A DNA stretch of 64,000 bases from a virus (taxonomy: Duplodnaviria; Heunggongvirae; Uroviricota; Caudoviricetes). This document shows positions 367-39,660 of the stretch, one piece after another. The notes beneath the pieces were generated by a model. It did not search any database, was not told the origin of the DNA, and saw nothing but the letters and a program-made list of their open reading frames with translations. The position numbers were made by a program, and so were the translations under genes. Numbering within the stretch: position 1 is the first letter of the stretch; every line of letters begins with the position of its first letter. Where the stretch lies: IMG/VR virus record IMGVR_UViG_3300009093_000040. One strand, written 5' to 3'.

Positions 367-978
367 CTAAAACTGACAATTCCATACTTTAAATCTCCTT
401 CCTATATGTTGGTTATACTTAGTTACTGTTTTTGTGTTGTCCGAATATCCATCATGTTGAAGAGCTACAAATGGATAAGTGCAATAAGATTTAGCGTTTC
501 CAAAATTAGGTACTGTCAACCAAAAATCCAAGTTATATGTTTCATCCGCTGATAAAAATTTATCATAAAACTTTTCTTTTACAATGTAACAGTGTAGCCC
601 GCTTAATTTTTCTGTAGCATGTGCAAGAGTATCTGTTATTGGTTGAAACACTCCGTCATAACAACCTGCAAAAAACAGATCACCATCGGCAGGCATGTTC
701 TCGTATTCTGTTAAAAAGCGCTTAAAACTTTTATCACATACAAACCAAACATCATCTTCAAGTATACATACTTCTTTTGCACCGGCATCCTTAGCTTTTT
801 GCACACACATTTTATGTGATTGTGAGATGCCACGTTGAGGGAATTTAGGGACCATGATTGCTTTTACTATCTCAGCATCAAGCATCTCTTCGCAATGTTG
901 CGTTTGAACTTCCAACTCTTTCATTAGTCGTTCTCTGCGCGCTGTATTTTCTATATTATGAATTATGTATGTCAGCAT
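367..978 (-). CDS. Glycosyltransferase family 25-like protein
   Basis: Motifs RRERL, GISQSHK..C, ILEDDV and LSGLHCYIV typical of GT25/LPS glycosyltransferases. Confidence 0.75.
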   Translation of the reverse strand: MLTYIIHNIENTARRERLMKELEVQTQHCEEMLDAEIVKAIMVPKFPQRGISQSHKMCVQKAKDAGAKEVCILEDDVWFVCDKSFKRFLTEYENMPADGDLFFAGCYDGVFQPITDTLAHATEKLSGLHCYIVKEKFYDKFLSADETYNLDFWLTVPNFGNAKSYCTYPFVALQHDGYSDNTKTVTKYNQHIGRRFKVWNCQF

Positions 979-8248: not shown

Positions 8249-8737
8249 TTATTTATGAAAATACCAGCGTATCGTAAAGCTATTAACTCCTACCCCACCT
8301 TGCTGTAATATAAGCGAATCTGAAGTTATCAGAAAGATTTTGTATTTCGATACAGAACCGCTGAACGGCGATAAGAAATTAATAGTATCATTATTAGCGG
8401 TCCACACATTAATACAATTCGTTTGGGAATTAGAGCTTACAGCATGGTAGCCGGTAACAGTATAATTTCCTGAACTGTCAGTATAAGTACCTCCTTGTAG
8501 ATCCAGAAAGTAATTAGAGCTATTGTAGTGCCCTAAAGTACCGTAGTTATGGTTTACACTATCGCGGCTGCTTTCTTCTTTTAGGTACCATTTACCCATC
8601 ACCGAGCTTTCACAGGAATTTAGGGTGCTTGGTGGAGGAGTTATGACTTTATTGGTTGTTGGGCTGGGGGTGTTGTTTGTTTTTTTACATCCAATAATCG
8701 AGATGGATAATAAAAATAGTAAAAAAAGTTTTTTCAT
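8249..8737 (-). CDS. Lipoprotein, possible lipocalin-like beta-barrel
   Basis: SPII signal MKKLFLLFLLSISIIG-C, Pro/Thr linker, then GKWYLKEE...W...NDTI segment. Confidence 0.7.
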   Translation of the reverse strand: MKKLFLLFLLSISIIGCKKTNNTPSPTTNKVITPPPSTLNSCESSVMGKWYLKEESSRDSVNHNYGTLGHYNSSNYFLDLQGGTYTDSSGNYTVTGYHAVSSNSQTNCINVWTANNDTINFLSPFSGSVSKYKIFLITSDSLILQQGGVGVNSFTIRWYFHK

Positions 8738-8839
8738 GTTTTTGGTTTTAATTATGTAAATATAGTAAAAAATATTATTTGATTAGATTTTGAGAATCCC
8801 AGACATTCAAAATGATTTTCCATCATAAAAAGAAAACAT

Positions 8840-9385
8840 TTATTTTGAAAATTCCCACTTAAATCCTCCGGCAGTTTTTTCTTTACCGTAAATACAGGCA
8901 GAAATGTTTTTATAGGAAATGTTATTATCTTTTCCTGCTTCTCGGGCGTTTACATATGTGCTAATAAATTCTCCTTTTTTATTCAACTTGTTTATCGGTT
9001 TTGATCCGTGGTGATTGGCTCCGGTTATCCCCGTTAATGCTCCTACTTTTAAACCAGTATCATAAGCATGCTGATTGTTTTCACTGTAAGTACTCCATTC
9101 TAAGTTATCAAGAGAAATATTTAGTTTAATCCCATCCTTATGGTTAACACAACATTTACCTTCAGGATTTGGTATGAAAGCAATTGCTAAAAGTCGATGA
9201 ACTTTAAAAGTGTAAACTTTACTATTTACATATAAGGAGACAACAATGTAACCAGTTTTTCCAACTCTTGTTTTAATTGTTCTTCCTTTTTTCTTATCAT
9301 ATTTGAATGATAAAATGTTTCCAAGACTACTGATTTTATACTGCTTTTTTGTTCCTGAAATATATTTCCAAATTTCCATAATCAT
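8840..9385 (-). CDS. NUMOD4-HNH-NUMOD1 homing endonuclease
   Basis: EIWKYI...YKISSLGNI (NUMOD4), VHRLLAIAFIPN...VNHKDG.KLN...NLEW (HNH), C-terminal GGFKW. Confidence 0.9.
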   Translation of the reverse strand: MIMEIWKYISGTKKQYKISSLGNILSFKYDKKKGRTIKTRVGKTGYIVVSLYVNSKVYTFKVHRLLAIAFIPNPEGKCCVNHKDGIKLNISLDNLEWSTYSENNQHAYDTGLKVGALTGITGANHHGSKPINKLNKKGEFISTYVNAREAGKDNNISYKNISACIYGKEKTAGGFKWEFSK

Positions 9386-11160: not shown

Positions 11161-11179
11161 GTGATGGTTTATTAGTTTG

Positions 11180-11256
11180 TGTATAAGACGAGACTCGAAC
11201 TCGTACCCCTGAGTAATATTTCTATTATAATGCTATACCAGTTTAGCTACTTACAC
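11180..11256 (-). ncRNA. tRNA-like element with a degenerate anticodon arm
   Basis: Acceptor GTGTAAG/CTTATAC, D arm GCTA/TAGC, T arm ACGAG-TTCGAGT-CTCGT; anticodon region is a TAATA-GAAA-TATTA hairpin with no 7-nt loop. Confidence 0.7.
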
Positions 11257-17971: not shown

Positions 17972-18042
17972 CGCTATGTGTTTTTTATTGCAGGGCTAAA
18001 TTGCTCACCGCACTACAAAGATAACACTTATTTTGAAAAAGC

Positions 18043-18350
18043 AAAAAGCCCCTACTATTATTCGGGGCTAATTGTTTACGCTGCTAAACGTTCTCTGCGT
18101 TTAGAAGTGCGGCATGCGTTTCTGTAATCAGAAAGGCTAACCACTTTTGCTTTGTTGTCTTTTATCTTTTCGTATTTCTATTTCCTATAACTACCACACC
18201 CTGTCAAAACCGGTCGAGCCCATAGTTTGTGCCTTGTGCAAAACAAGGACTAATAAACAATCAGGTAACTACGCCACAACTGCTATTTGTGGACCCGGAG
18301 GGATTCGAACCCTCGTCCAAAAGCGCTGTTAAAGAACGTCAAACAAAATA
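18043..18350 (-). ncRNA. ssrA: Circularly permuted (two-piece) tmRNA
   Basis: The 3' acceptor piece GGAC-GAGGG-TTCGAAT-CCCTC-CGGGTCC-A (18316-18290) precedes the 5' piece GGGCTCGACCGGTTTTGACAG (from 18221); G3.U70 pair; a frame ending LAA-stop (TAA 18078-18076); terminator AGCCCC/GGGGCT-TTTT; TACATTTG promoter at 18363-18356. Confidence 0.8.
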
Positions 18351-18388
18351 CAGAACAAATGTAATAAAAATTGTGTTACTTTTGTATA

Positions 18389-33448: not shown

Positions 33449-34012
33449 ATGATTTCAGAACTTTTTTTACCTGACTTAAAACTTATCATAGCAAAAGGAA
33501 GCTTACAGGATAAGAATGATTTTTTTGCAGCGTTGTATAAAAAACAAGAATCTTGGAATGCACCTTATGCCAACGAAACGTATTTGGGTGAGTTGAGTCC
33601 TGATAGACACACAGGTTCTATTAAGGTTCGTGATTTTCCTATGAATCCTAAAAGTTGGGTCGAGTTTGAAACATTTATTGATACAGCATATAAAACAGCA
33701 TTGTTTATTGATCAGTGGAAAAACAATTTAAGTGCTGCAGATTATGCTTGTTATTTAAAACGTGCCGGTATTTATAATGGTCCACATGGTCCACTTTTAA
33801 TTGCGTCAGATGGAACAGTTTTGTCACACGGTTTAATTACTCCTAATGTTTTTGCCTTTGCTTGGAATAAATATCGTGTTCCTTATGAAAGATACACTAT
33901 ACAAAGTGATCCTTTGTTTCCTTATATTAGAGATTTGGCAGCATTGGGCGAAGATCCTACATGTTTCCGTATGAGTAGATACGCTTTTCCAGAGTATACT
34001 TATAATAATTAA
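33449..34012 (+). CDS. Hypothetical protein
   Basis: 187-aa ORF. Confidence 0.65.
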   Translation: MISELFLPDLKLIIAKGSLQDKNDFFAALYKKQESWNAPYANETYLGELSPDRHTGSIKVRDFPMNPKSWVEFETFIDTAYKTALFIDQWKNNLSAADYACYLKRAGIYNGPHGPLLIASDGTVLSHGLITPNVFAFAWNKYRVPYERYTIQSDPLFPYIRDLAALGEDPTCFRMSRYAFPEYTYNN

Positions 34013-34032
34013 GTTTTTTTTATATTTGACGG

Positions 34033-34479
34033 ATGGAAAGAAATGTTTTAGTTTATCTTGATCCGCAAGGAAAACCAGATGATTTTGCACAATGCCGTTC
34101 TTGTAAAATGTTTATTCAAAGTAAAGGTGTTTGTTCTTTGCTTGGAATGGGTGTAAAAATAAATGGAGGCATGTCTTGTACTCAATATGCTTTTGGAAAA
34201 GCAGATGAGACAGAATTAGCACACGTATCAAAATCATTTACACCGGAAGAAGTTGGTTTAGTAGATAGAGAAGTTCGATGTGAAAATTGTGAATTTTTTG
34301 AATCATCAGATAATGATTGTCTTCTTTTTAAAACGTTAAACATTCCGCATAAAGTGAATAAGCATGGTTGCTGCAATGCCCAAGAAGCAAGTGATAAAAA
34401 AGAATCAAGTAAAAAATTAAAAGTTGATCATTCTAAACAACTTGTAATAAAAAGAACAAGTAGCCCTTTTGGTAAATAA
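34033..34479 (+). CDS. Cys-rich protein with two HiPIP-like CxxC repeats
   Basis: CRSCKMF...C...SC and CENCEFF...C...GCC; promoter TATATTTG at 34021. Confidence 0.5.
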   Translation: MERNVLVYLDPQGKPDDFAQCRSCKMFIQSKGVCSLLGMGVKINGGMSCTQYAFGKADETELAHVSKSFTPEEVGLVDREVRCENCEFFESSDNDCLLFKTLNIPHKVNKHGCCNAQEASDKKESSKKLKVDHSKQLVIKRTSSPFGK

Positions 34480-34483
34480 TTTT

Positions 34484-34515
34484 TTTGGTGAATTAAAATT
34501 TAAAATATATCTTTG
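34484..34515 (+). promoter_or_regulatory. Promoter P1 of tRNA block 1
   Basis: TTTG (34484-87)-N20-TATCTTTG (34508-15), matching the Bacteroidota sigma-A consensus. Confidence 0.8.
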
Positions 34516-34522
34516 TCCCATC

Positions 34523-34600
34523 ATGAAAGTAAAAAATTTATATAGTCTTCTATCGTTGAGTTATTCGTTACCAAGCGATGAGGGGATTACTATGAGTTAA
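34523..34600 (+). CDS. Leader peptide 1 (Leu/Ser/Tyr sensor) MKVKNLYSLLSLSYSLPSDEGITMS
   Basis: 25-aa ORF between promoter and terminator; 12 of codons 6-18 are L, S or Y. Confidence 0.85.
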   Translation: MKVKNLYSLLSLSYSLPSDEGITMS

Positions 34601-34627
34601 ACTTTAAAATTTTAGTTTGAACAAGTT

Positions 34628-34662
34628 AAACCCTCAGCGAAACACTGGGGGTTTTGCTTTTT
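34628..34662 (+). terminator. Attenuator terminator 1
   Basis: AAACCCTCAG-loop-CTGGGGGTTT then TGCTTTTT; the 5' arm CCCTCA can alternatively pair with TGAGGG (34579-84). Confidence 0.85.
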
Positions 34663-34664
34663 AT

Positions 34665-34749
34665 GCCCAGTTGGTGAAATTGGACAGAGACACGCCAGAC
34701 TTAGGATCTGGTGCTTTAATGCATGAGGGTTCGAGTCCCTCACTGGGTA
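34665..34749 (+). tRNA. tRNA-Leu(TAG)
   Basis: Cloverleaf, CCAGA-CTTAGGA-TCTGG, long variable arm. Confidence 0.9.
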
Positions 34750-34760
34750 CATAATAAAAT

Positions 34761-34848
34761 GCGTGAGTGGTGCAGATAGGCTGAGACACAACGGACTTAA
34801 AATCCGTGCGATAAGTTCACATCGTGGGTTCGAATCCCACCTCGCGTA
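34761..34848 (+). tRNA. tRNA-Leu(TAA)
   Basis: ACGGA-CTTAAAA-TCCGT, long variable arm. Confidence 0.9.
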
Positions 34849-34853
34849 CAAAA

Positions 34854-34940
34854 GGAGAGTAGGCAAATAATGGTTTGTTGCACCGCACTGCTAACGCGGC
34901 TCATGTAAAAGTGATGAGGGTTCGAGCCCCTTGCTCTCCG
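34854..34940 (+). tRNA. tRNA-Ser(GCT)
   Basis: Loop CTGCTAA, long variable arm, G73. Confidence 0.9.
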
Positions 34941-34946
34941 CAATAA

Positions 34947-35029
34947 GGAAGGGGTCCGAATGGACGAGGAAACTGTCTTGAAAACAGCTGGTCGTAATTG
35001 GCTTGGGGGTTCGATTCCCTTCTCTTCCG
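34947..35029 (+). tRNA. tRNA-Ser(TGA)
   Basis: Loop CTTGAAA, long variable arm, G73. Confidence 0.9.
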
Positions 35030-35040
35030 CAAAATTTAAT

Positions 35041-35113
35041 GGGAGTATCATCACCAACGGTAAGTATTCAGTCTGTAAAACTGCTAATCTAGGTTCGATT
35101 CCTAGTACTCCCA
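35041..35113 (+). tRNA. tRNA-Tyr(GTA), short variable arm
   Basis: GGGAGTA/TACTCCC acceptor, loop CTGTAAA, canonical T arm, weak D stem. Confidence 0.75.
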
Positions 35114-35168
35114 CAAAAATTTCCAACTAGTTGCAACCGGTTGGAATAAAAAAAATTATTTTTTTTTG

Positions 35169-35198
35169 TTTGTATATTAAAAATAAAGTTTACATTTG
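35169..35198 (+). promoter_or_regulatory. Promoter P2 of tRNA block 2
   Basis: TTTG (35169-72)-N18-TACATTTG (35191-98). Confidence 0.75.
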
Positions 35199-35218
35199 CA
35201 GAAGTTAAAAACTAGAAA

Positions 35219-35320
35219 GTGCAAAAACAAATCGTCATAACAGGAATTTGGAATATGGAGAATACCGCGGGTAAAAGAGACTGTGCGTATGGGGCTTCTG
35301 CTTTTCGTTTTAGAGATTAA
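35219..35320 (+). CDS. Leader peptide 2 (13-amino-acid sensor) (M)QKQIVITGIWNMENTAGKRDCAYGASAFRFRD
   Basis: GTG start after an A-rich stretch; codons 5-23 use only and all of the 13 amino acids of the downstream tRNAs. Confidence 0.8.
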   Translation: MQKQIVITGIWNMENTAGKRDCAYGASAFRFRD

Positions 35321-35344
35321 AATTTAAAACATAAAAAGGTAAAG

Positions 35345-35377
35345 GAGCCCGGCACAAAATGTCGGGTTTTTTGTTTT
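35345..35377 (+). terminator. Attenuator terminator 2
   Basis: AGCCCGGCA-CAAAA-TGTCGGGTT then T-tract; GGAGCCC can alternatively pair with GGGCTTC (35292-98). Confidence 0.85.
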
Positions 35378-35406
35378 AAGACGTTCTTTGATTAAAAAAT
35401 AAATTA

Positions 35407-35479
35407 GCTGGTGTAGCTCAAGTGGCAGAGCGGGTGCCTTGTAAGCATCAGGTTGGGGCTTCGATCGCCTCCGTCAGCT
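35407..35479 (+). tRNA. tRNA-Thr(TGT)
   Basis: GGTGC-CTTGTAA-GCATC cloverleaf. Confidence 0.9.
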
Positions 35480-35543
35480 CAGTGATTCGTCCCCATAAAG
35501 GCAGATATAGTACGGGGACTGCATTAGAATCCAATTTATTAAT

Positions 35544-35616
35544 AGCGATATAGCACAATTGGTGGTGCAAGCCTCTCATGATGGCTAGGTTGACAGTTCG
35601 AGTCTGTCTATCGCCA
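35544..35616 (+). tRNA. tRNA with CAT anticodon (Ile2 or Met)
   Basis: AGCCT-CTCATGA-TGGCT; A1.C72 mismatch; isotype not resolvable by eye. Confidence 0.75.
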
Positions 35617-35621
35617 CATAT

Positions 35622-35757
35622 GCGTCGGAAACATTGACGGTGATGTATGCAGGTTCTTTTTGAATTTGTAAGGTGTGATAATTTTACAAAGGAGATGCTT
35701 AGGAATAATCAACCTAAGTTTGAGTTGGCAAAGCAGGTTCGAGTCCTGCCTGATGCA
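35622..35757 (+). ncRNA. tRNA-shaped RNA with multibranched insert replacing the anticodon loop
   Basis: Acceptor GCGTCGG/CTGATGC, D arm ACAT/ATGT, T arm GCAGG-TTCGAGT-CCTGC; about 80-nt insert with TTTGTAA/TTACAAA and CTTAGG/CCTAAG hairpins. Confidence 0.7.
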
Positions 35758-35760
35758 CGA

Positions 35761-35834
35761 GGGGAAGGTCGTTGGTTCGAATCCAACATTGCCGCTGAAA
35801 GGTGGCGATTAGCTCAGCTGGCTAGAGCAGCCCC
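35761..35834 (+). ncRNA. Circularly permuted tRNA-like module with GAAA-capped acceptor stem
   Basis: 3' half (AGGTC-GTTGG-TTCGAAT-CCAAC-ATTGCCGCT) precedes GAAA, then the 5' half (GGTGGCGAT-TA-GCTC-AGCTGGCTA-GAGC-A-GCCCC). Confidence 0.75.
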
Positions 35835-35839
35835 GCGTT

Positions 35840-36142
35840 ATTTGAAATATTGGTTGAGTGTAGTTACTACAGAAAGTCGGTGAGAAAAAGAATCTGCGAG
35901 ATTTGACCCGATGAAATAGAAACTTTGAACGAAATTCAATTTTGCTCCTGTTGATTGATTTTCTAGTATGTCTTCAGAAGTTGATAAAACTTTCAGGGGT
36001 GGTACCAGATCGAAAAGCACGAAAGTTTAATTGTATTAAGAGTAGTTTAATGAGACTTTCTTAGGATATTTTTTCTGTACGGGAAAAAGAAAATATGCAA
36101 ACGTACACGCGTATTCTACAAAAAACACTCAACCAAACAAAT
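35840..36142 (+). ncRNA. Large structured ncRNA domain (GOLLD/ROOL-like candidate)
   Basis: 12-bp closing helix TTGGTTGAGTGT (35850-61)/ACACTCAACCAA (36125-36) enclosing several hairpins; lies in a phage tRNA array. Family assignment unverified. Confidence 0.55.
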
Positions 36143-36217
36143 TGGTAAATAGCTCAGCCCGGTTAGAGCGCCACGCTGATAACGTGGAGATCGATGGTTC
36201 AAATCCATTTTTACCAA
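36143..36217 (+). tRNA. tRNA-Ile(GAT)
   Basis: CCACG-CTGATAA-CGTGG. Confidence 0.9.
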
Positions 36218-36220
36218 CAT

Positions 36221-36296
36221 TGCGGGATAGAGCAGCGGTCAGCTCGTGTGGCTCATAACCATAAGGTCGGAGGTTCGAATCCTTCTCCCGCTACCA
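36221..36296 (+). tRNA. tRNA-fMet(CAT)-like, CCA encoded
   Basis: Unpaired 1:72, GAGC/GCTC D stem as in initiators, loop CTCATAA; lacks the three anticodon-stem GC pairs. Confidence 0.8.
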
Positions 36297-36298
36297 AT

Positions 36299-36370
36299 TC
36301 CTCCTTAGCTCAGAGGCAGAGCGCCGCCCTGTTAAGGCGAGGGTCGATGTATCGTAATCATCAGGAGGAG
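36299..36370 (+). tRNA. tRNA-Asn(GTT)
   Basis: Loop CTGTTAA; atypical T loop ATCGTAA. Confidence 0.85.
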
Positions 36371-36374
36371 CAAT

Positions 36375-36447
36375 GGCTCGTTAGGGGAGCGGAGTCCCTG
36401 CTACACTGTCACTGTAGAGACCATGGGTTCAAATCCCATACGAGCCG
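36375..36447 (+). tRNA. tRNA-Asp(GTC)
   Basis: CTACA-CTGTCAC-TGTAG, G73. Confidence 0.9.
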
Positions 36448-36452
36448 CATAT

Positions 36453-36525
36453 GCACTGGTAGCTCAATTGGCAGAGCGTTGGTCTCCAAAACCAAAGGTT
36501 GTAGGATCGTTGCCTGCCCGGTGTG
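36453..36525 (+). tRNA. tRNA-Trp(CCA)
   Basis: TTGGT-CTCCAAA-ACCAA; T loop ATCGTTG. Confidence 0.85.
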
Positions 36526-36537
36526 CAAAAAAAAGAA

Positions 36538-36660
36538 ATGATGAAAAATAAAAAAGAAAGTGACGAACCTTTTGAGCGAATTTGCTCGGTTCGTCTAAAG
36601 GTTAGGACGTTAGGTTTTCAACCTAAAAATATGGGTTCGATGTCCCGTACCGAGTACTAA
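36538..36660 (+). CDS. Putative regulatory mini-ORF overlapping tRNA-Glu (MMKNKKESDEPFERIC...)
   Basis: A-rich start context; Glu codons lie in the strand that pairs with tRNA-Glu nt 1-12; runs through the tRNA to TAA. Confidence 0.45.
   Translation: MMKNKKESDEPFERICSVRLKVRTLGFQPKNMGSMSRTEY
36584..36656 (+). tRNA. tRNA-Glu(TTC)
   Basis: TTAGG-TTTTCAA-CCTAA. Confidence 0.85.
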
Positions 36661-36664
36661 AATC

Positions 36665-36738
36665 GCAGGTGACGCATAAGTGGTGGTGCGCCAGCCTTCC
36701 AAGCTGGAATAGATTCGGTTCGATCCCGAATACCTGCA
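36665..36738 (+). tRNA. tRNA-Gly(TCC)
   Basis: CCAGC-CTTCCAA-GCTGG. Confidence 0.9.
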
Positions 36739-36743
36739 CACAT

Positions 36744-36791
36744 GCCGAGTTGAAAGGGAACTCACAGTGGGAGCACTGCCCCTCGGCTCCA
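36744..36791 (+). ncRNA. 48-nt acceptor-stem mini-RNA ending in T-CCA
   Basis: GCCGAG/CTCGGC-TCCA enclosing a CAGTG-GGAG-CACTG hairpin; no T loop or anticodon. Confidence 0.45.
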
Positions 36792-36794
36792 ATT

Positions 36795-36867
36795 GGTTCC
36801 ATGGGTGAGTGGATATAACTCAAGGTCTGCAAAACCTTGTACGCTGGTTCGAATCCAGCTGGGACCT
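36795..36867 (+). tRNA. tRNA-Cys(GCA)
   Basis: AAGGT-CTGCAAA-ACCTT, U73. Confidence 0.9.
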
Positions 36868-36875
36868 CTAGTAAT

Positions 36876-36950
36876 GCGCTCTTAGCTCAGGTGGTTAGTA
36901 GCAGCTCACTCATAATGAGCAGGTCGGTGGTTCAAGTCCATCAGGGCGTA
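36876..36950 (+). tRNA. tRNA with CAT anticodon (elongator Met or Ile2)
   Basis: GCTCA-CTCATAA-TGAGC. Confidence 0.85.
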
Positions 36951-36964
36951 CTGAAAATATAAAT

Positions 36965-37037
36965 GGGTTGTCATGTTCCTTGGCTGGCGAGAATGATTTG
37001 CAATCACTCTGGAAGAGTTCGAAACTCTTACGATCCA
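36965..37037 (+). tRNA. tRNA-Ala(TGC)
   Basis: Loop TTTGCAA; G3.U70 Ala identity pair; weak D arm. Confidence 0.8.
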
Positions 37038-37041
37038 CAAT

Positions 37042-37116
37042 ATCTGCATAGCTCAGTTGGTTCAGAGCGCTTGCCTTACAAGCAAAAGGTCGTTGGTTCG
37101 AATCCAGCTGCGGATA
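37042..37116 (+). tRNA. tRNA-Val(TAC)
   Basis: CTTGC-CTTACAA-GCAAA. Confidence 0.9.
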
Positions 37117-37133
37117 CTTAAAATAAAAACCAC

Positions 37134-37196
37134 ATGCTCCTGATTAGGAAATATAAAATAGTTTTTGCTGTTCTTCGAAAGAGGAAGGGTAGATGA
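37134..37196 (+). CDS. Putative Lys/Arg leader peptide MLLIRKYKIVFAVLRKRKGR
   Basis: 20-aa ORF with 4 Lys and 4 Arg codons (3 AGR), ending 7 nt before tRNA-Lys; A-rich AAAACCAC-ATG start. Confidence 0.55.
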   Translation: MLLIRKYKIVFAVLRKRKGR

Positions 37197-37203
37197 TTTA
37201 TAT

Positions 37204-37275
37204 TCCCTCGTGGCAAACAGGTGTAGGCAGTAGACTTTTAATCTATAGGGTCCGGATCGTTACCGGACGGGGGAA
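37204..37275 (+). tRNA. tRNA-Lys(TTT)
   Basis: GTAGA-CTTTTAA-TCTAT; T loop ATCGTTA. Confidence 0.85.
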
Positions 37276-37281
37276 CTTTAC

Positions 37282-37656
37282 ATGAGTAAGACTAAGAATA
37301 AAAAGCTCGGTATGAATGTTAGTACCGCGAATAATAGATTAAGAAAAAAACTTCTTTTTCATTTTGCTAAACTTTTAGGTTTAGATGATTGTTACAGATG
37401 TCATAAGAAGATAAAAAACCTTGAAGAATTTTCTATAGAGCATAAAGAATCTTGGATGAGTTCTAAAAATTCTTTGGATAAATTTTTTGATTTAGATAAT
37501 ATTGCTTTTTCTCATTTGATTTGTAACATTAAGTTTGAACGGATTAAAACAGGAGTAAAACACCCTTCGCATAGGGCATATAACCAAGGGTGTAGATGTG
37601 ATGGTTGTAAGAATGTAGAAAAAGAACGTAGAAGGAGTCAACGTCAAAATAAATAA
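37282..37656 (+). CDS. HNH endonuclease
   Basis: CYRC...FSIEHKESW...DNIAFSHLICN. Confidence 0.75.
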   Translation: MSKTKNKKLGMNVSTANNRLRKKLLFHFAKLLGLDDCYRCHKKIKNLEEFSIEHKESWMSSKNSLDKFFDLDNIAFSHLICNIKFERIKTGVKHPSHRAYNQGCRCDGCKNVEKERRRSQRQNK

Positions 37657-37662
37657 AATTTT

Positions 37663-37736
37663 GGTTCTATAGCTCAACTGGATAGAGCACCAGCCTTCTA
37701 AGCTGGGGGTTCTTGGTTCGAATCCAAGTAGGATCA
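37663..37736 (+). tRNA. tRNA-Arg(TCT)
   Basis: CCAGC-CTTCTAA-GCTGG. Confidence 0.9.
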
Positions 37737-37757
37737 CAAAAAAAAATAAAAATAAAT

Positions 37758-37788
37758 TTTGTAGTGTAAAAAACTATTTATAGATTTG
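37758..37788 (+). promoter_or_regulatory. Promoter P3 of tRNA block 3
   Basis: TTTG (37758-61)-N19-TAGATTTG (37781-88). Confidence 0.8.
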
Positions 37789-37792
37789 TCGC

Positions 37793-37873
37793 ATGAAAAA
37801 TATTACTTTACATCAATTTCCGTTTCAGTTTCGCCCGGTAGGAGCGAAGGGGAATGGTTGTATCCGGATGTAA
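37793..37873 (+). CDS. Leader peptide 3 (His/Gln/Phe/Pro/Arg sensor) MKNITLHQFPFQFRPVGAKGNGCIRM
   Basis: 26-aa ORF; codons 7-15 read HQFPFQFRP. Confidence 0.85.
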   Translation: MKNITLHQFPFQFRPVGAKGNGCIRM

Positions 37874-37897
37874 ACTAAAGTTTATCAAAGATATTCG

Positions 37898-37932
37898 AAG
37901 CCCCTTCTGAAAAGTTGGGGCTTTTGTTTTTT
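37898..37932 (+). terminator. Attenuator terminator 3
   Basis: AAGCCCC...GGGGCTT then TTGTTTTTT; CCCCTTC (37901-07) can alternatively pair with GAAGGGG (37846-52). Confidence 0.85.
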
Positions 37933-37941
37933 GAAATATTT

Positions 37942-38014
37942 CGAGATGTAGTTCAGTTGGTAGAATACGTGCTTTGGGAGCATGGGGTCGTCGGTTCGAG
38001 TCCGGTCATCTCGA
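37942..38014 (+). tRNA. tRNA-Pro(TGG)
   Basis: CGTGC-TTTGGGA-GCATG, C1-G72. Confidence 0.9.
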
Positions 38015-38017
38015 CTA

Positions 38018-38165
38018 AATTGTTGAAACGGGGTAGCGCCGTTCTTAGCGTAATCGCGTATGGTCCCATTGAGTTGGGGACAATAAGTCCATACGGTAAA
38101 GGCTGTCAAAAATGGGGAAGAGAAATCTTAGTAAGAAGGTTTACCGATGCAAGTTCGGAACAATT
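38018..38165 (+). ncRNA. Unassigned structured RNA (about 150 nt)
   Basis: Closing AATTGTT/AACAATT; internal CGTATGG/CCATACG, TTCTTA/TAAGAA and a CCGA-TGCAAGT-TCGG T-arm-like hairpin. Confidence 0.5.
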
Positions 38166-38171
38166 TAATTT

Positions 38172-38243
38172 GGAGCCATAGCTCAGTAGGTAGAGCAGCA
38201 GACTGAAAATCTGCCCGCACTGGTTCGATTCCAGTTGGTTCCA
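38172..38243 (+). tRNA. tRNA-Phe(GAA)
   Basis: GCAGA-CTGAAAA-TCTGC. Confidence 0.9.
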
Positions 38244-38304
38244 CTTTTATTTTTTTTTTTTGAATCTAAATTATAGATTCAAAATTTATTTTTATTTTTG
38301 TACT

Positions 38305-38703
38305 ATGAAATTATGTACAACATGTAAAATAGAAAAAGACGAAAGTGAGTTTAATAAAAATGAAAGGCAAGGAATTCAAAGTAAGTGTAGGTCTTGTAAC
38401 AGTGAATATCTCAAAAATCATTATAAAAACAACCGAAAATATTACATAGATAAGACAAAAAATAGACGTAAAAGTATAAGAAAATTTATTAATTCTTTGA
38501 AATTAAAATGTGTACGATGCCCTGAAAATCATATAGCTTGTTTAGATTTTCATCATCTATCGGATAAAGATATAAACATTGCTGACCTTGTTAATTCGGG
38601 AGCATCAAAAGAAAAAATATTGCAAGAAATTTCTAAATGTGTTGTTCTTTGTTCAAATTGTCATAGAAAACTTCACTATAATGAAAGAAAAATTGTCTCA
38701 TAG
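38305..38703 (+). CDS. HNH endonuclease
   Basis: CxxC repeats, CLDFHH...ISKCVVLCSNCHRKLHY; ATG 38305 after TATTTTTG; stop lies inside tRNA-Gln. Confidence 0.8.
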   Translation: MKLCTTCKIEKDESEFNKNERQGIQSKCRSCNSEYLKNHYKNNRKYYIDKTKNRRKSIRKFINSLKLKCVRCPENHIACLDFHHLSDKDINIADLVNSGASKEKILQEISKCVVLCSNCHRKLHYNERKIVS

Positions 38704-38765
38704 TGTAAAGGCAACATGTCTGGTTTTGGACCAGAAGATTACAGGTTCGACCCCTGTTGAGATAA
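38694..38765 (+). tRNA. tRNA-Gln(TTG)
   Basis: TCTGG-TTTTGGA-CCAGA. Confidence 0.9.
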
Positions 38766-38767
38766 CT

Positions 38768-38840
38768 GGGGCTTTTCGTCTAATGGTTAGGACGCTTGCT
38801 TGTGGAGCAAGAAATTTCGGTTCGAATCCGTGATAGCCCC
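38768..38840 (+). tRNA. tRNA-His(GTG)
   Basis: G-1/C73, CTTGC-TTGTGGA-GCAAG. Confidence 0.9.
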
Positions 38841-38849
38841 CAGACATAT

Positions 38850-38921
38850 TCCAACGTCGTCTAATGGACAGGACACAGGGCTACGGACCTTGGGGTGGGA
38901 GTTCGATTCTCTCCGATGGAA
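38850..38921 (+). tRNA. tRNA-Arg(ACG)
   Basis: CAGGG-CTACGGA-CCTTG. Confidence 0.9.
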
Positions 38922-39024
38922 CTTATTATCAACAAAACATTAAAATAGTATTTTGTGTGTTAAAACTATTTTTTGACATCAAAAATATTATTATATACAT
39001 TTGGACAATCTTAAACCAACAAGA

Positions 39025-39243
39025 ATGAATTCAAATGCAAATGAGGGTGGCGAAGCTACTGCGGAACAAATCCAAAAACGTAAAGAAGATCAAAAAAATC
39101 AAAAAGCACTAATGGAAGATGCCCTTCCGTTTTTGAGAACTCAAATGGAGTATTTCGAAACACAAGCAAGAATAGATGAGGCAATTGTTCGTAGAGAACG
39201 GGCTAATATAATGCTTGCTGAAATGAAAGCTCCAAAAAAATAA
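39025..39243 (+). CDS. Hypothetical coiled-coil protein
   Basis: ATG 39025 after TACATTTG (38996). Confidence 0.7.
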   Translation: MNSNANEGGEATAEQIQKRKEDQKNQKALMEDALPFLRTQMEYFETQARIDEAIVRRERANIMLAEMKAPKK

Positions 39244-39246
39244 TAA

Positions 39247-39660
39247 ATGGCAAAGACAAAAGTTGTAGATAAAGTTATCCAACAGGATCTTTTTGAAATT
39301 GTAAAATTTCAGATAATGCTTCATTGTCATTTGAATAATGTTATTTTAAATCAAAGTGAACTTAGTTGTCTTACACTTTTGGGTTGTGTTGGTGAGATGC
39401 AGTTAATCACATTTTGTAGATTAGCTGTTGAAAAAGAATTATATACCACACCTACTGCCGTTAACAATTGTTTAGCGCGCGTTGAAAAAAGTAAACTTTT
39501 TATTAAGAAAGGTGGTGGTAAGAAACTTATTTTTCTTAATCCGGAATTAAAAATTCAAACGAAAGGTAACATATTGTTGAACTTAAAGATTGTGAGAGTT
39601 GAAGCCCAAGAAACCAAAGGAGTTAATCAAGGAAACAGCGTTGCGGTTGAACATGCCTGA
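39247..39660 (+). CDS. Hypothetical protein (possible winged HTH)
   Basis: 137-aa ORF at the head of the morphogenesis operon. Confidence 0.65.
   Translation: MAKTKVVDKVIQQDLFEIVKFQIMLHCHLNNVILNQSELSCLTLLGCVGEMQLITFCRLAVEKELYTTPTAVNNCLARVEKSKLFIKKGGGKKLIFLNPELKIQTKGNILLNLKIVRVEAQETKGVNQGNSVAVEHA

Follow-up and report, generated by a model that had tools for sequence, protein, structure and literature searches.

The phage sequence IMGVR_UViG_3300009093_000040, analysed here as a stretch of 64,000 nucleotides (the window), carries an array of tRNA genes divided into three units, and each unit is very probably a separate operon under a ribosome-mediated (leader-peptide) transcription attenuator. 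The tRNAs would probably be made only when ribosomes slow at the codons of the leader. The attenuator reading is based on the anatomy of the units, on statistics, on alternative RNA pairings, on coding constraint, on linkage and on covariation. An earlier sequence-only reading of this DNA had described, in each unit, a promoter, an open reading frame (ORF) of 25-33 codons, a segment able to pair with an arm of an intrinsic terminator, and the terminator itself, and all of these elements were recovered by pattern matching, ORF prediction and folding (Table 1).

Using ARAGORN, we collected 23 tRNAs on the + strand between 34665 and 38922, and Infernal added a 24th at 35041-35113 (39.5 bits), the anticodon loop of which reads GTA (Tyr) by inspection. 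Three of the genes of unit 2 encode tRNA-Met.

Table 1. Coordinates of the leaders, control elements and tRNA genes of the three units in the window
Feature	Coordinates	Strand	Description
Unit 1 promoter	34484..34515	+	TTTG, 20 nt, TATCTTTG; start codon 7 nt downstream; kept in L115, L116 and L134
Leader ORF 1 (L1)	34523..34600	+	25 codons; core codons 6-16 (34538-34570) = LYSLLSLSYSL
Region 2 of attenuator 1	34579..34585	+	TGAGGGG; pairs with leader core (1:2) or with terminator 5'-arm CCCTCA (2:3, antiterminator)
Terminator 1	34628..34664	+	intrinsic, 10-bp stem then T-run; abuts tRNA-Leu
Unit 1 tRNAs	34665..35113	+	Leu(TAG), Leu(TAA), Ser(GCT), Ser(TGA), Tyr(GTA) (ARAGORN, Infernal, inspection)
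Unit 1 end hairpin	35121..35146	+	A/T runs follow; fold z = -2.4
Unit 2 promoter	35169..35198	+	TTTG, 18 nt, TACATTTG; same -7 box in L115 and L134
Leader ORF 2 (L2)	35219..35320	+	GTG start, 33 codons; codons 5-23 = 35231-35287
Region 2 of attenuator 2	35291..35304	+	GGGGCTTCTGC...; pairs with GGAGCCC of terminator 5' arm
Terminator 2	~35341..35381	+	intrinsic, GCCCGGCA / TGTCGGGT, then T6GT4
Unit 2 tRNAs	35407..37737	+	Thr, Met, Ile, Met, Asn, Asp, Trp, Glu, Gly, Cys, Met, candidate Ala(TGC), Val, Lys, Arg(TCT)
Unit 3 promoter	37758..37788	+	TTTG, 19 nt, TAGATTTG; ATG 4 nt downstream
Leader ORF 3 (L3)	37793..37873	+	26 codons; core codons 7-15 (37811-37837) = HQFPFQFRP, Arg = CGC
Region 2 of attenuator 3	37846..37852	+	GAAGGGG; pairs with core (1:2) or with terminator 5'-arm CCCCTTC (2:3)
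Terminator 3	37897..37935	+	intrinsic, GAAGCCCC / GGGGCTTT, then T-run
Unit 3 tRNAs	37942..38922	+	Pro(TGG), Phe(GAA), Gln(TTG), His(GTG), Arg(ACG)

Leader codons and downstream tRNAs

The sequence-only reading had proposed that the codons of each leader list the tRNAs behind it, and we compared the leaders with the six-frame translation of the whole window. Among runs confined to Leu, Ser and Tyr, the longest (11 residues, with a runner-up of 9) is the core of L1, ahead of tRNAs for Leu, Leu, Ser, Ser and Tyr, and the longest run made only of Phe, His, Pro, Gln and Arg (9 residues, with a runner-up of 7) is the core HQFPFQFRP of L3, ahead of Pro, Phe, Gln, His and Arg(ACG). Codons 5-23 of L2 draw on 13 amino acids and no others (I, V, T, G, W, N, M, E, A, K, R as AGA, D and C), and the shortest stretch covering all 13 amino acids of unit 2, of 17 residues, lies in this leader, the runner-up requiring 25. 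All three window-wide extremes thus sit directly ahead of the matching tRNA set, and exchanging leaders between units abolishes the match. For random peptides of phage composition, the upper bounds are 1.7e-7 for L1 and 2.2e-6 for L3, so that the agreement between leader and tRNA set goes beyond chance. The claim of an exact list of 13 holds for the codons of L2; on the side of the tRNAs, tRNA-Ala is a candidate only.

The match extends to isoacceptors. As the sequence-only reading had noticed, the Arg codon of L2 is AGA and its unit encodes Arg(TCT), and that of L3 is CGC and its unit encodes Arg(ACG). In L1, codons from both boxes of Leu and from both boxes of Ser occur, and unit 1 encodes the two isoacceptors for either amino acid. 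Compared with the codon usage of the phage genes, the leader codons are a mix of common and rare ones.

Promoters, terminators and alternative pairings

The Bacteroidota-type promoter pattern (TTTG-N17-21-TAnnTTTG) has 7 matches in the window, three of which end 4-20 nt ahead of the start codons of the leaders. From these positions, we infer that the mRNA of unit 1 would be near-leaderless and that of unit 3 leaderless. The space between each terminator and the first tRNA cannot hold a promoter, and the tRNAs are therefore transcribable only by read-through. In each unit, 82-87 nt separate the last core codon from the end of the terminator stem. The hairpin behind tRNA-Tyr is, according to its predicted fold, a probable terminator closing unit 1.

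In the free RNAs of L1 and L3, folding predicts a hairpin between the core and the segment downstream of it (1:2) together with the terminator (3:4), with z = -4.6 and -4.9, respectively. To model the translating ribosome, a footprint of 28 nt was masked codon by codon along the leader. For L1, the probability of the terminator is 0.97 in the free RNA, 0.05-0.55 with the ribosome on codons 6-14, and again 0.97 from codon 15. For L3, the terminator prevails at equilibrium, as in trp; in the nascent RNA, before region 4 has been made, GAAGGGG leaves the terminator 5' arm unpaired when no ribosome is present (0.00), sequesters it (about 0.6) with a stall at codons 2-15, and releases it with the ribosome over codons 16-21. 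The 1:2 protector pairing was found for L1, for L3 and for the leader 2 of the related contig L116 (see below), and none is clear for L2 of the window. The models thus predict trp-like, ribosome-dependent switching for L1 and L3, and for L2 an antiterminator with only part of this behaviour.

Relatives in other soil metagenomes

Starting from the proteins that flank the array, we reached four related contigs from other samples, named here L115, L116, L123 and L134, the flanking proteins of which are 93%, 70%, 62% and 58% identical to those of the window, respectively. In L115, all three leaders are present and the changes in their cores are synonymous only (CTA to CTG, GCG to GCA), with flanking codons changed; the core of L3 is identical, and its flanks carry T5S, L6V and C23Y. 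The unit-1 tRNAs of L115 fail to align with those of the window at a cut-off of 80%, with the same identities and a nearly unchanged leader, and an exchange of unit-1 tRNAs among close relatives is apparent from these sequences.

In L116, unit 2 is inverted and relocated beyond two protein genes and has kept its own promoter, leader and terminator, and unit 1 is positioned behind leader 1. Leader 1 of L116 carries a 6-nt in-frame deletion that preserves its L/S/Y composition, and the core protein of leader 2 is identical except for a 3-nt in-frame deletion; between the window and L116, the indels within the ORFs are thus of 6 and 3 nt, whereas those between stop codon and terminator are not multiples of three. 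Nonsynonymous changes affect 0 of 26 core codons versus 14 of 26 codons outside the cores (p = 1.1e-5).

The pairings are conserved as well. Region 2 of attenuator 1 reads TGGGGG in L116 and L134 and retains its pairing via G-U, and in the partner segment of attenuator 2 of L116 a G to A change turns a G-U pair into A-U. The stem changes of L116 (A-U to G-U, G-U to A-U) preserve pairing, and its terminator loops are replaced, terminator 1 for example having a conserved stem and a new loop. Terminator 2 is conserved in both L115 and L116, with pair-preserving changes. In the ribosome-mask test, clean switching is predicted for the homologues of L1 and L3 in L123 and L134, and L116 behaves alike.

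The two most distant relatives differ in the place of one tRNA. In both L123 and L134, Arg(ACG) lies directly behind Arg(TCT) and not in unit 3, which consists of Pro, Phe, Gln and His, and the cores of leader 3 (FQPFQHPQFF in L123, QHQQPQFP in L134) are both without Arg and are the top runs for their four-amino-acid set within their own contigs. In leader 2 of L134, a run of 26 residues covers all 13 amino acids and includes both AGA and CGT. The Arg codon therefore tracks the Arg tRNA both ways, being lost from the leader-3 cores and present, as CGT beside AGA, in leader 2 of L134. The order of the core residues also varies among lineages (LYSLLSLSYSL versus LYSLSLSYSLLS) at constant composition, which argues for selection on codon content and not on the peptide. 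Conservation of the leaders and their co-variation with tRNA content, which the sequence-only reading had predicted for related arrays, are thus seen in these relatives (in-frame indels, core codons free of replacements, shift of Arg), the co-variation also in the unrelated phages described below.

Analogous leaders in cultured phages

Cellulophaga phage phi4:1 (NC_021788) contains two such leaders. The first has the core QRLHLQELEQP (Arg = CGT), followed by a terminator and by tRNAs for Pro, Glu, Gln, His, Leu, Leu and Arg(ACG). The second, annotated as the hypothetical protein gp075, has the core TKTGITVIDKTKGARAY (Arg = AGA), followed by a terminator and by tRNAs for Ala, Lys, Ile, Gly, Met, Asp, Thr, Val, Arg(TCT), Met and Tyr. 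Folding of the nascent RNA predicts an antiterminator in both leaders when the ribosome is stalled at the core codons. The annotated coding sequence of gp075 (NC_021788, 4345-4464) overlaps the promoter; the leader ORF probably starts at GTG 4381. A third mini-ORF of this phage (gp076) is a weak match only.

Caulobacter phage phiCbK has a mini-ORF containing the run KAASPASLSLAPLA, followed by a terminator and by tRNAs for Pro (two), Lys (two), Leu (three), Ala and Ser (two), and no longer run for this set occurs in the 72 kb sampled; a second leader of this phage matches less well. The leaders of phi4:1 and phiCbK resemble those of the window in having a promoter, a mini-ORF that spells the downstream tRNA set, an antiterminator and a terminator, and phi4:1 shares with the window the association of CGT with Arg(ACG) and of AGA with Arg(TCT), as well as one leader starting with GTG CAA. 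Both phages differ from the window in their sequences and in the partition of amino acids among units, which changes from phage to phage, the leaders differing to suit. Our literature search found no paper describing the leaders of phi4:1 or phiCbK.

Proposed mechanism and points against it

Transcription of each unit would start at the Bacteroidota-type promoter, and a ribosome would load on the short ORF near the extreme 5' end of the RNA. If the core codons are read fast, the ribosome would reach or pass region 2, which would then be covered or held in the 1:2 pairing; with region 2 unavailable, the 3:4 terminator would form and RNA polymerase would halt at the T-run just 5' of the first tRNA. 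If any core codon is slow, the ribosome would stall on region 1, the 2:3 pairing would form, and the polymerase would read through and make the tRNAs. These tRNAs would read the core codons of their own operon and relieve the stall, giving a negative feedback on decoding capacity, with the capacity for all 20 amino acids divided over three sensors. For the translation of near-leaderless and GTG-start ORFs, for termination and read-through in vivo and for the cause of the stall, we infer from sequence and models; the ribosome would stall alike under late-expression demand, host shut-off, tRNA-cleaving defences or amino-acid starvation.

Several observations weigh against attenuation as described. 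The switching proposed for all three leaders is reproduced by ribosome-mask folding for L1 and L3, whereas in L2 of the window the antiterminator (GGGGCTTC with GGAGCCC) is the default fold and the terminator is favoured only with the ribosome over codons 21-32, and not at the stop codon, which makes this leader the weakest modelled switch of the three. The starts of L1 and L3 are leaderless or near-leaderless and that of L2 is GTG, and initiation at them is assumed. According to wobble rules, the core codons CTT, GTC, ACC and GGT are readable by the U34 tRNAs of the operons only via extended wobble. None of the Rfam leader families (Trp_leader, His_leader, Leu_leader, Thr_leader and others) is listed in the window at E <= 1, and the relatives give only sub-threshold matches to these families (20-24 bits versus cut-offs of 41-55). 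Within unit 2, the putative tRNA-Ala(TGC) at 36965-37037 is called by neither ARAGORN nor the Rfam tRNA model; the acceptor stem of this candidate is of 7 bp and includes G3:U70, its T arm is canonical and its anticodon loop reads TGC, but its D arm is degenerate. Between tRNA-Phe and tRNA-Gln of unit 3, the window carries an insert (38258-38703) consisting of a strong AT-rich hairpin and an ORF, and this insert may uncouple Gln, His and Arg(ACG) from leader 3. In L134, finally, no tRNAs other than two for Arg follow the 13-amino-acid leader on the contig: a chimeric Arg(TCT)-like one (29.3 bits, borderline) and Arg(ACG). The sequence suggests that this unit 2 was truncated by a deletion between tRNA genes or by assembly collapse. 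In the chimeric gene (2328-2398, - strand), the 5' half is like the tRNA-Thr that opens unit 2 of L116, and the anticodon and 3' half are like Arg(TCT).

Alternative explanations

The reading of the units as attenuated operons leaves room for different causes of the stall. A broad proposal, which we put forward tentatively and with more doubt than belief, is that codon-matched attenuators are a general control layer of phage tRNA operons, from Bacteroidota phages to Caulobacter phages, and form a closed, codon-resolved loop that restores whichever tRNAs run short, including those destroyed by host anticodon nucleases, as an inducible counter-defence. A narrower variant of the attenuator reading, possible but in our view unlikely, makes counter-defence the actual trigger: anticodon nucleases or other tRNA-depleting systems of the host would cause the stall and thereby induce replacement tRNAs. 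The three sensors jointly span the 20 amino acids and would report any single shortage, and phage tRNAs are documented as countermeasures to tRNA-targeting defences (PMC11464382, PMC10264068). No feature of the window ties the array to a defence system, however, and late-gene demand or host shut-off would drive the circuit equally well.

Alternatively, the leaders could sense amino-acid supply (tRNA charging) or general translation stress, and time or tune expression of the array without responding to the level of tRNAs. A stalled ribosome is indeed blind to the difference between a missing and an uncharged tRNA, as in trp and his attenuation (PMC1183508). Such a response would be futile, since extra tRNA cannot relieve starvation, and the leader codons track the anticodons of the operon down to the Arg isoacceptors and follow tRNAs that move, which fits a loop acting on tRNA level; we therefore hold this alternative to be improbable.

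Much less probable again is a role outside termination, in which translation of the mini-ORF affects how the precursor folds, how stable it is or how its 5' end is processed, or in which the peptides are trans-acting; the hairpins would then be ordinary leaky terminators or processing signals. Termination is itself a prediction of the models, and L2 of the window switches poorly in equilibrium folding, as such a role would allow, but the complementarity between region 2 and the terminator 5' arm is kept across diverged sequences, and the residues of the cores are shuffled between lineages at constant composition, contrary to what a trans-acting peptide would require. Coincidence, that is unrelated small ORFs and terminators lying ahead of tRNA blocks, has only the post hoc character of the first reading in its favour and next to no probability, since three window-wide extremes stand at the three predicted places, and likewise in L115, L116, L123, L134, phi4:1 and phiCbK; it was rejected on the run and cover statistics.

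Comparison with known systems

In their predicted structure, the units resemble the trp, his, leu, thr, ilv and pheA attenuators, and the novelty lies in tRNA genes as targets. Like the attenuators of amino-acid operons (trpL, hisL, leuL, thrL and pheL, and the multivalent ilvGMEDA and thr), they contain a short ORF in which regulatory codons are concentrated and an intrinsic terminator ahead of the regulated genes, about 80 nt lie between these codons and the terminator end, and folding predicts 2:3 and 3:4 hairpins that exclude each other, with a 1:2 hairpin in L1 and L3. Unlike these, they would control tRNAs and not enzymes, so that the product would decode its own sensor; L2 lists 13 amino acids, mostly once each, in place of a run of one to three; and the leaders are phage-borne, with Bacteroidota promoters and leaderless or near-leaderless starts, and belong to no Rfam leader family. 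To our knowledge, all described leader-peptide attenuators target enzymes of amino-acid biosynthesis or aminoacylation. The attenuator of Escherichia coli pheST, the operon of phenylalanyl-tRNA synthetase, is close in that a leader peptide controls a gene of the translation apparatus through the decoding of cognate codons, as proposed for the window, but it controls a synthetase, senses one amino acid and is cellular.

T-box riboswitches are also terminator/antiterminator leaders that report the state of a specific tRNA. By contrast with the window, where the reader would be the ribosome, they bind uncharged tRNA directly and have no translated ORF, and a T-box covariance model gave no match at E <= 1 in 34000-39500. 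The leaderless polycysteine short-ORF attenuators of mycobacteria (bioRxiv 10.1101/834739) can be likened in outline, as the codon content of an ORF ties downstream expression to decoding, but these sense one amino acid, have protein-coding targets and occur in a different phylum. A full-text literature search, with most subscription journals outside its scope, found no description of attenuators ahead of tRNA genes or phage tRNA arrays, in agreement with the sequence-only reading, which knew of none.

The purpose and use of phage tRNAs have been debated for decades, with codon compensation, host shut-off and escape from tRNA-targeting defences among the proposals. If the attenuator reading is true, the supply of phage tRNAs would be regulated on demand and not constitutive, and classical attenuation would reach RNA genes with products that act back on the sensor controlling them. 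The 'roll-call' leader of 13 amino acids would be a design unseen in amino-acid operons. Fusions of leaders to reporters would offer a simple handle on which tRNAs become limiting in infection, and the presence of the layout in the cultured phages phi4:1 and phiCbK makes the idea directly testable.

Phage lineage and distribution of the array

The ORF at 48346-49971 matches the Crassvirales major capsid family PF23898 (Pfam, E = 1.3e-27), and by this crAss-type major capsid protein the window, with a GC content of 34%, is assigned to a crAss-like phage (Crassvirales). A search of sequencing runs recovered near-identical DNA from a rhizosphere metagenome and related DNA from soil and wetland metagenomes, all of these runs being of DNA, with no RNA run among the matches listed.

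About 600 relatives of the capsid protein are present in IMG/VR, the best 80 at 78-82% identity. In 43 capsid-relative loci that were scanned, no tRNA lies closer than 10 kb to the capsid gene, and five long contigs with capsid relatives have 0-2 tRNAs each. The array appears confined to a small lineage, because the capsid relatives checked have 0-2 tRNAs and none beside the capsid gene. Searches aimed at the array itself gave a similar picture: among GenBank phages (blastn, distant mode), we found similarities to single tRNAs and no related array; IMG/VR, scanned with the flanking proteins, with degenerate patterns for leaders 2 and 3 and with a tRNA junction pattern, yielded no related array; and one scan of the JGI metagenome collection returned only a chance match in eukaryote-like DNA and no related array. 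Distant homologues (35-51% identity) of the upstream 148-aa protein are without adjoining tRNAs. In Phage Phass-1, the tRNA array is dispersed, with many ORFs interspersed.

Other features of the array and of the window

Pfam gave no match for the proteins flanking the array or for the two ORFs within it (37282-37656 in unit 2 and 38305-38703 in unit 3), which are Cys/His-rich and HNH-like by motif. The first is absent from L115, where the Lys and Arg tRNAs adjoin; the second gives way in L115 to another ORF, of 61 aa, and is missing from L123 and L134. As they are absent or replaced in L115, both are most simply seen as mobile insertions between tRNA genes. L115 has in addition a gene of 209 aa (8459-9088, - strand) inserted on the opposite strand between unit 2 and the promoter of unit 3, where it replaces the -33 region of this promoter.

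In the window, the tRNA-Tyr(GTA) at 35041-35113 is without the long variable arm of bacterial class II tRNA-Tyr, which is present in the tRNA-Tyr of L115 (6227-6308) and of L134 (3193-3282).

Unit 2 also holds tRNA-like or non-coding RNA elements between 35618 and 36142. The first (35622-35757) has a tRNA-like acceptor and T arm with a long insertion in the position of the anticodon arm; it is changed in L115 and absent from L116, where the next element directly follows tRNA-Met. This next element (35761-35834) is a circularly permuted tRNA-like sequence: its 3' half, with the T arm, comes ahead of its 5' half, with the D arm, and a tetraloop caps the acceptor helix. It is also found in L116 (around 700-790, minus strand), and in the window the overlapping segment 35746-35851 gives a weak, sub-threshold match to Rfam YrlA (Y RNA-like; 32 bits versus a cut-off of 69). 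The third (35840-36142) is a stretch of about 300 nt with no long ORF and no Rfam match, which has a counterpart of similar length at the same place in L116 and is partly replaced in L115; it is a candidate structured RNA co-transcribed with the tRNAs. A candidate small RNA is the structured spacer of 156 nt between tRNA-Pro and tRNA-Phe (38016-38171), which has few changes in L115 (9371-9526).

Away from the array, ARAGORN calls an isolated and unusual tRNA-Ser(AGA) (11179-11256, - strand), with a terminator hairpin abutting its 5' side; the ORF preceding it is not Ser-rich, and a codon-matched leader is therefore missing there. The same program calls a permuted tmRNA with a tag peptide of 27 residues (17985-18383, - strand), which is flanked by a terminator-like hairpin and a match to the promoter pattern (18016-18045).

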